Part shown: piece after piece, positions 1 to 64,000 of the stretch
Layout: every line of letters starts with the position of its first letter
Numbering within the stretch: position 1 is the first letter of the stretch
Origin: a virus
Lineage: Duplodnaviria > Caudoviricetes
DNA length: 64,000 nucleotides
Virus record (IMG/VR): IMGVR_UViG_3300033463_000010
Span: 149,232-213,231 of that record
Direction: 5' to 3' (one strand)
Notes under the pieces: generated by a model
Database searches by the model: none
Told to the model about the DNA's origin: nothing
The model's input: only the letters and a program-made list of their open reading frames with translations
Position numbers and translations under genes: made by a program

Positions 1-27
1 GCATCACCATTAAATTCTTCGCAAAAC

Positions 28-258
28 TTACACATCCTGGGACTTCTCACGTTCACGTAATTTAGCCGATTCTTCCCATTCAACGTTGGGGTCAAACTTC
101 GGGTAGTTTTCAATTTCTTCTTCGCTCACTTTCTGTTTGAACGTCAATCGGGCATACTGCCGACATACGGGGCAGTAGTCGTTTTGCCAATCCATAAGGC
201 TGTCATAAGCGATTAGGGATTTGCATTTTCCGCATTTGTAGAGTCTGTTCCACAGCAT
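28..258 (-). CDS. small Zn-ribbon hypothetical protein
   Basis: CGKC...CPVC pairs; in co-directional operon. Confidence 0.6.
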   Translation of the reverse strand: MLWNRLYKCGKCKSLIAYDSLMDWQNDYCPVCRQYARLTFKQKVSEEEIENYPKFDPNVEWEESAKLREREKSQDV

Positions 259-452
259 TTCTTATACTCCCTTAAATCACGCCCGCACATCGGGCAAAAG
301 TTAATCGTAGCACTTTCGTCGCCATAACACTCTATACGAAAACCCGTCGGGCTTTTATACAGGTGGAAGCGGTCGGTGCAGTCCCAAAAGTCTTCCCCGC
401 TTATATCCCTGCCAATATCACCAATCAATTTTTCGCAATACTCACACGCCAT
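213..452 (-). CDS. Zn-ribbon protein (CxYC...INFCPMCGR family)
   Basis: MACEYC...INFCPMCGRDL; paralog of 442..651 and 2492..2758. Confidence 0.65.
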   Translation of the reverse strand: MACEYCEKLIGDIGRDISGEDFWDCTDRFHLYKSPTGFRIECYGDESATINFCPMCGRDLREYKKCCGTDSTNAENANP

Positions 453-651
453 TATTCGCCCCCGTGAGGTCCCTGCCACAGACGGGACAGAACTTGATTA
501 TGGCATAGATAGCACCCTGGTCCGCATTCAAGGAATACACCCCGTCTTTCGTGCGGTCAATGTAAATCCTGCTGCAAGACTGTTCCCCGCTTATATCCAG
601 GTCCACGTTGTATTCGGGCAGCGGGTCGTTATGTTCACAATACTTACACAT
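442..651 (-). CDS. Zn-ribbon protein (CxYC...FCPVCGR family)
   Basis: MCKYC...IKFCPVCGRDL; ACCGAGG RBS. Confidence 0.7.
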   Translation of the reverse strand: MCKYCEHNDPLPEYNVDLDISGEQSCSRIYIDRTKDGVYSLNADQGAIYAIIKFCPVCGRDLTGANNGV

Positions 652-937
652 TTGTTTTTACCTCGGTTTTATAGCACCATTTCCAGGAACCGCTAGACTT
701 CACGTAACGGATTCGTCCCTTGTAAAAGAAATGGAACCCGTCTTTGTTTGCCCCGTCCTGGTTTCCATAGTTGCACATATACACAGTAGTTGACGAATCA
801 ATGAACCCGTCTTTCGGGGGAGCCACATAAATCCAAACGTCACATTTCGGGCGTTCTTCGTCAAATGTCTTCCAGGGTATAGTCACGGTTTCGGTAATCA
901 TTTCAAGCAGTCCCCATTTGCGTAGGGGTCCACGCAT
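644..937 (-). CDS. hypothetical protein
   Basis: ORF tiling; WKTFDEERP motif typical of small phage proteins. Confidence 0.55.
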   Translation of the reverse strand: MRGPLRKWGLLEMITETVTIPWKTFDEERPKCDVWIYVAPPKDGFIDSSTTVYMCNYGNQDGANKDGFHFFYKGRIRYVKSSGSWKWCYKTEVKTNV

Positions 938-1045
938 TCAATCGTGATTTCGTCTTGATAGTGCGTGATTACGTCCACGATACGGAATACCCCGTGCGTC
1001 GTGTTGACATACACTTCTGCGTCCAGGTTTAGTGCGTGACTTAAT

Positions 1046-1258
1046 TTATTTAGAAGTTCGTGTCCGTCCATTTTTCTTTTCCTTTAAAGACCAGGCTATG
1101 AATGCGTCGCTACACGTTTCGTATTTCTGTTCCTTACGTTTGCCGTCTGCATAGCAGAACGACTTCGCAGGGCACGTCTTACAGTTTTCGTTCATTACGG
1201 ATTCAATGAGCCTGCTAATGTTCTTTGCGTTTCTTACAAAGTGCTGCAAGTTGTTCAT
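1046..1258 (-). CDS. hypothetical Cys-rich protein
   Basis: TAATG coupling with upstream gene. Confidence 0.6.
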   Translation of the reverse strand: MNNLQHFVRNAKNISRLIESVMNENCKTCPAKSFCYADGKRKEQKYETCSDAFIAWSLKEKKNGRTRTSK

Positions 1259-61198: not shown

Positions 61199-61240
61199 AC
61201 AGGAATTGTTATTTTAATTGAGTATAACCAAAACCCTTTA

Positions 61241-61666
61241 ATGAGGATTACTTCTATGATACGGGACTTAATACCTGGCAAAGCAAGGAACAACTCCGAT
61301 TCCTACCTGGAAGACATTATCACCGACGCTGCCGAAAAGGTAGATATGGCTTACAGCGGTCTTCGTGATATTCTTGACGAAGACGCAAGCGACAGCATTG
61401 TAGGAACCATTGACCGCCTTAACGACGGACCCGAAAAAGAAGAAATGCTGAAGCAGTTGGACCGTATTAACGGCATTTGCGACGAACTTAACGACGCAAA
61501 CAACGCTATAGGGGCTATTTCCGAGGAAATAGGTAGCACCTACGCCTATGAGAATACCATTGAAGCGTGGAAGGACATTGTGTTGGCAGCACTCCCTGGT
61601 AATTGCTCCGCTGCGTTTGCTGCTGACGTTGAAGATGCGTTGGCAAAGTTCACAAGCGTTTACTAA
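61241..61666 (+). CDS. acidic helical hypothetical protein
   Basis: GAGGA RBS. Confidence 0.65.
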   Translation: MRITSMIRDLIPGKARNNSDSYLEDIITDAAEKVDMAYSGLRDILDEDASDSIVGTIDRLNDGPEKEEMLKQLDRINGICDELNDANNAIGAISEEIGSTYAYENTIEAWKDIVLAALPGNCSAAFAADVEDALAKFTSVY

Positions 61667-61683
61667 TAAGCGAGGATTCAAGT

Positions 61684-63204
61684 ATGAGTTTGAAAATCAA
61701 TCTTCATAACAAGAAACGTGAAGCCGTTTCCACTGCTGACAAGCCGTGGCTTGGCAAGCGTGCTAAAACCCGTGACGGTCGTGAAATGTGGTCTAGGGAC
61801 CCGCAGTATGCAACCGCTGTGATTCGTCCGCTTTGGGATTACTTTGACACGAACCCGTCCGAACTAGAAAAATATGGCTTGAAAGTTTATTGGAACGGAC
61901 CATCGGGCGATATTCAAGTTGACAAAAATGGAAAACCGCTCGCAACTGTTTGGTATGACAAGGATATGGGCTTGATTACTGTAGAACAAGCCACTGCGGT
62001 TAAGCCATACAATTTCTATCCCGATGAAGACCCGCAGAACCTCATTGACTTCATTAAAGATTTAGCAAGCGGTAAGGGTTGGCACGAATCCAAACAAAGC
62101 GAAGCCTATTACATAGATATGTATTCTAGTAGTGGCTATTCTATGGGTAGAGTGACAGGCAACACCATAAAAGACGTTGTTACGCAGGCTGCGGAACAAA
62201 TGGATTGGCTTTCTACTGCGGAAATAAGAAGAATGGTTAAGAAATCTAGTGAAACAAAAGGTGAAGCCTATTACTCCCAGGGCAACCGTGACGGTCGCAA
62301 GTATGCCCCGATGAAGACCCAGGAATCGTTCCCGAACCGTGCAGCGTTCCTGTCTTACAAGAAAGGCTACAACGAAGCCCTTGACGGCATTTACGAAGAA
62401 ACGGGCGACCCCGACTTTGACAAGGAAGTTAAGGACCTTAAATCAAAGCCTGGTATGGACAGCCTTGTTTCCGCTTTGGACGGCTTGACCGACGAACAGC
62501 TTGCCTTGCTTGAAAAGGGCTTTGGCGACGGTGAATATGCCGAAAAAATGAACACTGCCGTAATGGATATTAAGGCAAAGGACCTGCACCCGACGCAGAA
62601 CGAAATTGACGTTGGCAAGTCCCTGTCTTACCAAATCAGCGGTAAGAACCCCGACCAGGTTAAGCAAATCCTTGATGGCGGTCCTGTCACCATTAACTTG
62701 CCGTTGGTAGTCTATGACTACAACGGAACGTATTACATAGTGGACGGGCACCACCGTTGGTCCCAGGTGTTCCTGCTCAACCCGAACTGCCAAATCAACA
62801 GTATTGTTTTCAAAAATTCCGCAGGCGACACCGCACAGGACCCCGCAGATATGCTGCGTGACTTCCAGGGTGCTATCGCTATCGCAAACGACGGTGAAGT
62901 TCCGCAAAGCACCGTCAAGCCTGGAATGAATATGTTTGATTGGTCGTCCGACCAACTCCGTGACTACCTGGAAGAAAATATCCAGGACGGTATGATTTCC
63001 GCTTACCAGGATTTCTACAACTCCGAAATTGACAAGAAAGACATTGAAAATTCTGTTGTCAGTAACGCAGGCTTGATGAAGAAATCCAATAAGCCTATCA
63101 ATAACGCCCCTAGCCGTGCCGTTATGCCACAGACCGACACGGGCGTTGACAAGACGGGCGTTGCGGGTCTTGAAATCGCAAAGAAGGGTATGACCGACCT
63201 TTAA
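61684..63204 (+). CDS. multi-module protein with C-terminal ParB/Srx-like domain
   Basis: LHPTQ...IVDGHHRW; MSLKINLH leader. Confidence 0.75.
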   Translation: MSLKINLHNKKREAVSTADKPWLGKRAKTRDGREMWSRDPQYATAVIRPLWDYFDTNPSELEKYGLKVYWNGPSGDIQVDKNGKPLATVWYDKDMGLITVEQATAVKPYNFYPDEDPQNLIDFIKDLASGKGWHESKQSEAYYIDMYSSSGYSMGRVTGNTIKDVVTQAAEQMDWLSTAEIRRMVKKSSETKGEAYYSQGNRDGRKYAPMKTQESFPNRAAFLSYKKGYNEALDGIYEETGDPDFDKEVKDLKSKPGMDSLVSALDGLTDEQLALLEKGFGDGEYAEKMNTAVMDIKAKDLHPTQNEIDVGKSLSYQISGKNPDQVKQILDGGPVTINLPLVVYDYNGTYYIVDGHHRWSQVFLLNPNCQINSIVFKNSAGDTAQDPADMLRDFQGAIAIANDGEVPQSTVKPGMNMFDWSSDQLRDYLEENIQDGMISAYQDFYNSEIDKKDIENSVVSNAGLMKKSNKPINNAPSRAVMPQTDTGVDKTGVAGLEIAKKGMTDL

Positions 63205-63217
63205 TGGAGCGTGTAAT

Positions 63218-64000
63218 ATGAACCAACTTGAACAACTTGAAGTTTATCTTAAACACCTGGGTCGTCCCTATGTGATTAAGAACGCTGACCCGAAAGCATT
63301 CAACAAAATCCCCTATACCGACGAAAACGGAAAGGACAACGAAGTTGAATACACAAAGGTCGTCACGATTGACAGCCCCGAATCCGTAAAGGACTATTAC
63401 CCGAAGATAGACCTGTGGTATATCCCGTCTTTGGATAAATTCGTAGAACACGGAAGTGCTACGGATGGTGAAACCAACGAACTGCAAGCAGACACCGCAA
63501 GGGACATCCTGGACTATATCGGGTATGTCTATTGGGAAATGGAAGACCTGGGCGACCAACTTGACAATTCCCCAAAAAACACCGAAAAACGTTTAAACAA
63601 TTCCAAAAAGGAAAGCAGTATGAAAACCTACGAATGCTCTATGCAGAAGAAAATTGAAAGCCTCGCCAAAAAGCGTTCCGAAAAGCGAACCGTGACGAAA
63701 AGCTACGACGTTTACAAATACGACGAACTTTCCGACGACGCAAAGGCAAAGGTCAAGGATTTGTTCTTGCAGTGGCGTGGCGAAGACGGTGACATTTTCA
63801 AGGAAGACTGCGAAAACAGCCTTGCGGAAATGTTCCCGAACTCCGATTTGAAAGTGCAGTATTCCTTGACCTCTTCCCAGGGTGACGGCTTCAACACCTA
63901 CGGCACCTTGAGCATCAAGGACCTGCTCAACGCAGATTTCAGCAAATACCCGCTCAACGATTCGGGCATTACCGCACCTGCAAACAAGGACGCTATCCTT
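63218..64000 (+). CDS. multi-module protein, truncated by window end (internal start 63620)
   Basis: open frame from ATG 63218 to window end; VYKYDELSDDAK...QGDG module. Confidence 0.7.
   Translation, partial: MNQLEQLEVYLKHLGRPYVIKNADPKAFNKIPYTDENGKDNEVEYTKVVTIDSPESVKDYYPKIDLWYIPSLDKFVEHGSATDGETNELQADTARDILDYIGYVYWEMEDLGDQLDNSPKNTEKRLNNSKKESSMKTYECSMQKKIESLAKKRSEKRTVTKSYDVYKYDELSDDAKAKVKDLFLQWRGEDGDIFKEDCENSLAEMFPNSDLKVQYSLTSSQGDGFNTYGTLSIKDLLNADFSKYPLNDSGITAPANKDAIL

Follow-up and report, generated by a model that had tools for sequence, protein, structure and literature searches.

We analysed the final (right-hand) 64 kb of the 213,231-bp virus record IMGVR_UViG_3300033463_000010 (Duplodnaviria; Caudoviricetes), whose completeness is estimated at 97%. 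This stretch, hereafter the window, encodes four putative DNA methyltransferases and lacks a large number of short words that resemble restriction sites. The 213-kb record is the genome of an uncultured jumbo phage of lytic type. The window has a G+C content of 48.7%, and its genes lie mostly on the minus strand until about 57.6 kb and on the plus strand beyond, with Shine-Dalgarno-like leaders preceding them. Its replication module comprises a family A DNA polymerase, an SNF2 helicase, a DnaB-like helicase, a gp32-like single-strand-binding protein, a UvsX-like recombinase and an SbcC-like nuclease (features with coordinates are collected in Table 1). The polymerase is less than 25% identical to its nearest counterpart in cultured phages, and when 20 kb of the window were compared with the public phage collection, no near-identical record emerged.

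Table 1. Features of the 64-kb window, with positions counted from its first base.
Feature	Position	Strand	Remarks
Methyltransferase 1	12803..13486	-	227 aa; PF01555, 94.5 bits; motif IV T-D-I-P-Y; most divergent paralog
Methyltransferase 2	19002..19778	-	258 aa; PF01555, 95.2 bits; motif IV C-D-L-P-Y
Methyltransferase 3	19782..20657	-	270-291 aa by start codon; PF01555, 111 bits; directly downstream of the DNA polymerase gene
Methyltransferase 4	48072..48920	-	282 aa; PF01555, 108.9 bits
Family A DNA polymerase	20596..23280	-	Pfam search; anchor for fetching related phages
tRNA-Met	17271..17345	-	TTCAA T-loop, no TCGA; one of seven phage tRNAs, none with the usual TTCGA
Sole GGCC of the window	3315..3318
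Sole GTAC of the window	4387..4390		Genome position 153618
Sole TCWGA of the window	19561..19565		Genome position 168792; inside the methyltransferase 2 gene
Poly-Gly run	37562..37590	-	GGT and GGC alternate; GCGGC (GCSGC) never arises

Short words lost from the window and the genome

Word counts in the window were set against mononucleotide and maximal-order Markov expectations, and are given here as observed/mononucleotide/Markov. Eight four-base palindromes are virtually absent, namely GATC (0/249/104), CCGG (0/225/262), GCGC (0/225/146), CGCG (0/225/162), TCGA (0/249/189), CATG (0/249/135), GTAC (1/249/179) and GGCC (1/225/183), with observed/expected ratios (O/E) of 0.00-0.03 under mononucleotide and Markov models alike. 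GCSGC (0/110/71) is also missing, as is CCAG followed by any base other than G (CCAGH plus DCTGG, 0/358/200), whereas CCWGG occurs 356 times. In addition, CTNAG (0 copies), CGSCG, TCAGG/CCTGA and GTCTC are missing, TCWGA is found once, and 51 of the 64 six-base palindromes have no copy at all. A first-pass annotation, made by eye, had reported large-scale avoidance of restriction sites, and the counts support it: of the words that it had not met, GATC, CCGG, GCGC, CGCG, TCGA, CATG and GCSGC have no copy and GTAC has one, at 4387; the single GGCC that it placed at 3315 is indeed the only one; and the poly-glycine run in which it saw no GGCGGC alternates GGT and GGC. The Markov comparison that it proposed places the palindromes and CCAGH far below expectation rather than near it.

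Across the whole genome, GATC occurs once, CATG is absent, and 1026 CCWGG sites stand against five CCAG in other contexts. We defined a minimal avoided word as one of 4-7 bases present at no more than 6% of the lower of the two expectations, with the strands merged, and found 49 such words genome-wide. Those of four and five bases are the eight four-base palindromes (of sixteen), CCAGA, CCAGC, CCAGT, TCAGG, TCWGA, CTNAG, GCSGC, CGSCG and GTCTC. The 27 hexamers consist of 18 palindromes, members of the degenerate families CYCGRG, GRCGYC, GTMKAC, GWGCWC and GRGCYC (O/E of the families 0.00-0.01), plus GTATCC, GGCGGA and GCACGC, and the seven-base words are GGTNACC, GCCWGGC and GGCWGCC. Among all six-base palindromes, 51 of 64 are at or below 5% of expectation genome-wide, those still common being the A/T-rich ones, AACGTT, TTGCAA and TAGCTA. 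Interrupted palindromes are affected as well, with 0-2 copies against 33-71 expected for CACN3GTG, CAGN3CTG, GACN3GTC, CCAN5TGG, CCTN5AGG, GCAN5TGC, GCCN5GGC, GACN6GTC and TCAN6TGA.

The avoided words take the form of restriction sites, whether palindromic, interrupted or degenerate. The interrupted palindromes, in the order listed above up to GACN6GTC, correspond to the sites of DraIII, AlwNI, Tth111I, PflMI, EcoNI, BstAPI, BglI and DrdI, and the five degenerate hexamer families to the sites of AvaI, AcyI, AccI, HgiAI and BanII, respectively. We know of no enzyme for CCAG, TCAGR, CGSCG, GCCNGGC, GGCNGCC, TCGNCGA or TCAN6TGA. A search of the genome found no avoided Type I-like bipartite words beyond the interrupted palindromes, which agrees with the survey of Rusinov et al. 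2018 (PMC6286503), according to which phages avoid mainly orthodox Type II sites and not Type I-like bipartite ones.

Eight related virus contigs were recovered by a search with the polymerase (80-93% protein identity), and the relatives fetched include two complete genomes, G001 (215.7 kb) and G002 (215.3 kb), plus several fragments. Their aligned parts are collinear with this genome and share 73-76% DNA identity with it, and each lineage has an avoided list of its own. G001 is without the eight four-base words plus AGCT, and also without GTYRAC, GAAN4TTC and ACCTGC, all of which are common in this genome. G002 has lost only GATC among the four-base palindromes and has no methyltransferase, and 34 hexamer palindromes are still missing from it. 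Another lineage (L009, L123 and L127) has kept CCGG but is devoid of CCAG of every kind. In a closer relative, G004 (84% identical over 28 kb), all 52 of the aligned AGCT sites of this genome are changed, against a median conservation of 55% for four-base words. Because the lists differ in this way, the purge is recent and lineage-specific, and it is ongoing; the pressure thus comes from a host population whose complement of restriction systems changes.

Several observations demonstrate that selection acts on the DNA itself and not on proteins, and that it is strong enough to override function. First, CCWGG sites occur in all three codon phases, and 14% of them are intergenic, compared with 15% of the genome. 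Second, Trp-Pro is the only dipeptide without a permitted encoding under the banned words, since TGG CCN contains GGCC, and no dipeptide of the predicted proteome is more depleted (0 against 35.6 expected), while Pro-Trp occurs 40 times. The second most depleted is His-Met (4 against 29.5 expected), which requires CATG or CATATG. Third, the T-loops of the phage tRNAs are altered. Besides the tRNA-Met of the window there are six tRNA genes (Ser, Tyr, Asn, Ala, Glu and Phe) at genome 137,900-138,700 (locus L274, 3936-4650); those for Ser, Tyr, Asn and Glu carry GTCCGAA instead of the usual GTTCGAA, and the other three of the seven carry TTCAA, so that TCGA never forms in any of them. T-loop position 55 is normally invariant, and in four of these tRNAs it is occupied by C. 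We found no published case of avoidance that deletes a dipeptide from a proteome or rewrites tRNA T-loops. Based upon the word counts and the comparison of relatives, we hold with high confidence that escape from host Type II restriction endonucleases has removed some fifty short words from this genome. Beyond the eight four-base palindromes, these include twenty further six-base palindromes and nine interrupted ones, and the asymmetric words among them are GTCTC, GTATCC, GGCGGA, CACGAG, TCAGG and CCAG outside CCWGG.

A further set of words, GATG/CATC, GAGA/TCTC, CGAG/CTCG, CCAAG/CTTGG and CACGAG, is strongly but incompletely depleted, and in this lineage only. For example, GATG/CATC occurs 459 times in this genome versus 2467 and 3161 times in the two complete relatives. 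Strand-biased (Type III-like) avoidance was considered and rejected for this set, as the remaining copies of GATG, GAGA, CGAG and similar words have no top/bottom asymmetry. Since these asymmetric words are softly depleted without strand bias, they may represent avoidance that is still in progress.

Residual copies of forbidden words are concentrated outside the window, at genome 11,900-23,800 (locus L275). This stretch of about 12 kb has a G+C content of 0.37-0.46, compared with about 0.49, and holds 36 of the 76 residual forbidden words of the genome, chiefly GTAC and GAGAT. Its counterpart in G001 spans only about 2 kb, and the segment at 21.6-22.9 kb has three match places in G002, in the manner of a mobile gene. 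The stretch is probably a more recent acquisition in which the purge is incomplete. In a 200-bp patch at genome 16,317-16,515, some of the words that are nearly absent elsewhere are present: GCGC four times, CGSCG twice, and CGCG and GGCC once each.

The CCAG rule and the abundance of CCWGG

All 221 CCAG and all 135 CTGG in the window sit within CCAGG or CCTGG, exactly as the first-pass annotation had described. When CAG is preceded by A, G or T, it is followed by G 29.6% of the time, and the probability of finding 356 of 356 by chance is about 1e-188. We compared the three avoided forms over ten related sequences. The O/E values for CCAGA/CCAGC/CCAGT are 0.00/0.01/0.00 in this genome; three relatives have 0.09/0.04/0.04, 0.11/0.18/0.17 and 0.30/0.29/0.36, and the one relaxed relative has 0.85/0.65/0.89. 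The three words therefore deplete together by similar factors, which argues for one CCAG-directed agent rather than three enzymes. CCWGG, on the other hand, moves independently of CCAGH, from 0 to 3 times expectation; some relatives have lost CCAG entirely, CCWGG included. In G002, CCWGG is at 0.30 with CCAGH near normal, and hence a CCWGG-directed pressure also exists alone in this clade. It is very likely that one agent accounts for the removal of CCAG outside CCWGG, and the simplest candidate is an enzyme with CCAG as its asymmetric recognition site. The earlier proposal was that such an enzyme is blocked by CCWGG methylation; the part of it that gains support here is that CCAG outside CCWGG behaves as one selected unit across lineages. 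A literature search for a CCAG enzyme yielded a single entry, in a published methylome table (PMC5930826) where CCAG appears among the known (not unique) Type II motifs and was only partially detected.

The related words TCAGA and TCAGG are missing while TCAGC and TCAGT remain, and their co-variation across lineages is looser. This loss may reflect the action of TCWGA and TCAGG enzymes.

Relative to base composition, CCWGG, GCWGC, CGWCG and GGWCC are 1.75-2.85 times over-represented, and they rank at the top among SSWSS words here and at the bottom in G001 and G002. The first-pass annotation had called GANTC, GGWCC, GCWGC and CCWGG abundant. Judged by base composition this is correct for CCWGG, GCWGC (239 in the window) and GGWCC (222), but under the Markov model the latter two are neutral, and GANTC is actually depleted (111 against 249; O/E 0.45). 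CGWCG, which was not on that list, is as common as GGWCC and GCWGC (228 against 116 in the window). The Markov-3 O/E of GCWGC, CGWCG and GGWCC is 1.09-1.13 in this genome and 0.36-0.47 in G001. A synonymous-recoding simulation that preserved proteins, codon usage and hard bans predicted 502 +/- 12 CCWGG, whereas 881 were observed; measured against the same simulation, the genome has CCAAG/CTTGG at 0.28 and GATG/CATC at 0.35 of prediction. In alignments with relatives, the commonest counterparts of the CCWGG and CGWCG sites of this genome are CCAAG and CGATG. Given these deficits and the counterparts in relatives, the excess of the four SSWSS words is mostly that of a sink, which collects codon changes leading away from other avoided words (the softer CCAAG/CTTGG and GATG/CATC, as well as CCAGH), and their accumulation is possible only because this lineage is unrestricted at them. 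Positive selection for the four palindromes was also considered and rejected as unnecessary, given a Markov-3 ratio of about 1.1 for three of them and an excess that is offset by the CCAAG and GATG deficits.

Four variable methyltransferases

The number of methyltransferases given by the first-pass annotation is confirmed, with four open reading frames that score 94.5-111 bits against PF01555 (gathering cut-off 26.7). They are paralogs with 34-61% identity, in which the N-termini are nearly identical and a C-terminal tail is shared, while the central recognition regions are unrelated. The order of motifs is the expected one, with IV, recognition region, I, and the SAM-binding glycine motif takes the form G-S-G-T-T. 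In place of (D/S)PP(Y/F), motif IV has D-L-P-Y or D-I-P-Y, the first proline being replaced, and relatives have D-P-P-Y and S-P-P-Y alleles. An S-P-P-Y motif is typical of N4-cytosine enzymes, and the leading Asp of motif IV suggests that the four enzymes of the window are adenine-specific. Over most of its length, methyltransferase 3 finds its best solved-structure matches in the adenine methyltransferases MboIIA (1G60; residues 1-257) and RsrI (1EG2), and CcrM (6PBD) is matched as well, with E-values from 4e-17 to 3e-15. The NCBIfam CcrM scores of 75-78 bits are far below the equivalog cut-off of 830, and this, with the depletion of GANTC, sets the enzymes apart from the CcrM/HinfI-type GANTC group. 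PF02086, PF02384 and Vsr have no match in the genome, and a gamma-class N6 methyltransferase is absent.

Among close relatives, the number of methyltransferase genes per genome ranges from 0 to 7. The genes occupy shared positions and include the D-P-P-Y and S-P-P-Y alleles, and they constitute a cassette system. Methyltransferase 1 is 58-59% identical to three enzymes of G001, and the position of methyltransferase 2 is occupied in G004 by an allele that is only 60% identical. The only close ortholog of methyltransferase 3 (95-96%) is in G004, which is the sister lineage and the other CCWGG-rich one, and its homologs at 55-59% are in phages without strong avoidance. Next to the polymerase, three CCWGG-keeping lineages carry a methyltransferase-3-like allele and two CCWGG-free ones carry a different allele, a comparison that involves few lineages and in which the recognition regions differ. 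Assignment of targets by co-occurrence was attempted and abandoned, as methyltransferase 4 has orthologs in lineages with and without CCWGG and the close ortholog of methyltransferase 3 is confined to G004. The suggestion that the retained five-base words are the targets of the four enzymes fares poorly, because GANTC is depleted about two-fold and GGWCC, GCWGC and CGWCG are neutral by the Markov measure.

The genes for methyltransferases 3 and 2 are in tandem and in one frame, separated by TAG plus one codon (window 19776-19790, minus strand), and tandem pairs in G001 also have a 6-nt spacing by tblastn coordinates. This junction could permit read-through to a fusion protein, or could be just tight cassette packing. 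All methyltransferases of the clade (the four of the window and those of G001, G004, L006 and L009, S-P-P-Y alleles included) start with M-(D/E)-L-N-(K/R)-(I/L)-(Y/H) and end with L-T-G-P-F-x-(I/L)-(Y/F)-G-N-(I/L)-G. Such constant ends may help cassettes to be exchanged, or may allow the enzymes to dock to a protein of the phage. Among unrelated virus contigs with methyltransferase homologs at 47-75% identity (loci L129-L142, L150, L160, L200 and L212-L223), many have no CTAG against 16-81 expected, and few other absences.

The closest bacterial homologs of the methyltransferases are 38% identical and come from Clostridia, Bacilli, Tenericutes and many further groups without a clear focus, and their flanks exhibit no similar palindrome loss. 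In cultured phages, the nearest homologs (46-51%) are found in phages of Geobacillus, Brochothrix, Bacillus and Enterococcus. The Shine-Dalgarno-like leaders, together with the nearest methyltransferase homologs in metagenome-assembled genomes and phages of Bacillota, give a weak hint that the host belongs to this phylum.

Restriction, methylation and comparison with known systems

The explanation that we favor overall, with a probability of about 0.6, is a restriction-driven purge in which a single CCAG agent is active and CCWGG methylation provides an exemption. In this scheme, the changing Type II systems of the host population would cause the phage to lose site words lineage by lineage, and an asymmetric CCAG-recognising agent would eliminate CCAG outside CCWGG. 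CCAGG and CCTGG would be spared by methylation, for which either one of the four PF01555 enzymes or a CCWGG methylase shared by the hosts could be responsible. The role of methylation, taken by itself, is at best an even bet, which we base on general grounds and on the identity of the words that survived. It is preferred because restriction sites are commonly blocked by CCWGG methylation that overlaps them.

Several points weigh against this explanation. The data are equally compatible with an enzyme for which CCAGG is not a cleavage site. Moreover, GCCWGGC is absent (0 against 20-26 expected), and thus not every CCWGG context is safe. The C5-methyltransferase family PF00145 was matched in 9 of 14 control genomes but nowhere in the 213 kb of this phage; with the adenine-type motif of the four enzymes, this would limit a phage-encoded CCWGG mark to one strand, at the single adenine in the centre. 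The 88% orthologs of methyltransferase 4 are found in G001, a genome that keeps CCWGG, but also in L127, where CCWGG is at 0 against 24 expected, and the ortholog in the CCWGG-free lineage makes it an unlikely CCWGG methylase.

The strongest rival, although we judge it unlikely, is an agent that recognises CCAGH as such, for which CCAGG is no substrate and methylation plays no part. Such an agent accounts equally well for the count of 0 versus 356 and for the co-variation, and it would be in keeping with the lack of an encoded C5-methyltransferase. Relatives free of CCWGG could then reflect a separate CCWGG enzyme, as the depletion of CCWGG with near-normal CCAGH in G002 would allow. However, specificities of the 'not G' type are rare among characterised enzymes, whereas blocking by CCWGG methylation is commonplace, and the four methyltransferases would be left without a role. 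Less likely again is an extended version of the favored explanation, in which the avoided list would be a near-complete negative print of the host Type II repertoire, including the specificities for which we know of no enzyme. The D-(L/I)-P-Y enzymes, by methylation of the single adenine at the centre of CCWGG-type sites, would then copy the mark of the CCAG system onto the kept subset.

Three unrelated enzymes of the ACTGG, CCAGA and CCAGC types could also have produced the CCAGG-only rule by coincidence. BsrI is an ACTGG enzyme, and one for CCAGA may exist; avoidance in this genome also extends to many further asymmetric words of five and six bases. Independent enzymes should not, however, generate words that track each other in every lineage, graded from 0.00 to 0.89, and none of the ten sequences has one of the words absent with the others normal. 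We therefore regard the coincidence as improbable. Mutational or repair bias (very-short-patch-type correction of T:G to C:G at CTWGG) or compositional drift, without restriction, is more improbable still, and is disfavored as a cause of the absences. It would account for CTTGG/CCAAG being 4-5 times rarer here than in relatives and, with the direction as expected, for its being the commonest counterpart of CCWGG sites there. However, CTAGG/CCTAG, on which such repair should act as well, has not been lost to a similar extent, changes from A to C (CAAGG to CCAGG) come close in frequency, and the phage has no Vsr gene; nor can a bias erase some fifty palindromes, remove Trp-Pro, or differ between genomes that are 84% identical. 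That the phage avoids the sites of its own nucleases, aimed at host or rival DNA, is scarcely credible despite the existence of large viruses with several restriction-like nucleases, such as the chlorella viruses, because about fifty specificities would require some 50 kb of nuclease genes, because avoided lists differ between relatives whose aligned parts are collinear and about 75% identical, and because G002 avoids its 34 hexamer palindromes without any methyltransferase.

Under the favored explanation of a restriction-driven purge, this genome shows how far restriction pressure can push a phage, at the cost of half of the four-base palindromes, one dipeptide and a near-universal tRNA position. 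As close relatives differ both in their avoided lists and in their methyltransferase cassettes, the clade offers a natural experiment on the speed with which phages track host restriction repertoires and on when methylation is chosen over site loss. The avoided list also predicts the specificities of host enzymes, some possibly undescribed, and comparing avoided words with the restriction systems and methylomes of hosts would be a route to host assignment for uncultured phages. In addition, the genome is a ready example of restriction-evading DNA for hosts that are hard to transform.

Classic restriction-site avoidance is known from non-temperate phages such as T7 and Bacillus phages. The present genome resembles these double-stranded DNA phages in that a lytic-type phage has lost short palindromic Type II sites. 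It differs from the avoidance surveyed previously (PMC6286503) in that some fifty independent words are lost from one genome, half of the four-base palindromes among them, and in that the loss of one word is conditional on its flank. The proposed exemption is similar to the blocking of laboratory enzymes by Dcm (CCWGG) methylation, as the overlap with CCWGG puts both inner cytosines or the central adenine inside the CCAG site and the CCAGG subset is thereby protectable. Unlike with Dcm, the block here is deduced solely from the surviving words, and the modifier would be a phage adenine or N4 enzyme or a host enzyme.

Orphan or multi-specific methyltransferases are carried by the Bacillus phages SPR, phi3T and rho11s, and T4 and P1 encode Dam. 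As in those phages, the enzymes described here presumably pre-empt host restriction, with target-recognition regions that are swapped on a constant scaffold. In contrast to multi-specific C5 enzymes, however, they are small, separate beta-class PF01555 proteins that occur alongside massive site loss rather than replacing it. They share the order of motifs with MboIIA, RsrI and CcrM, but identity is low and the recognition regions are unrelated, so that targets are not transferable. The phage is a genuine and extreme case of a known strategy, in which the new elements are the number of lost words, the forbidden dipeptide, the rewritten tRNA loops, the flank-conditional CCAG rule, and the pairing of lineage-specific lists with methyltransferase cassettes.

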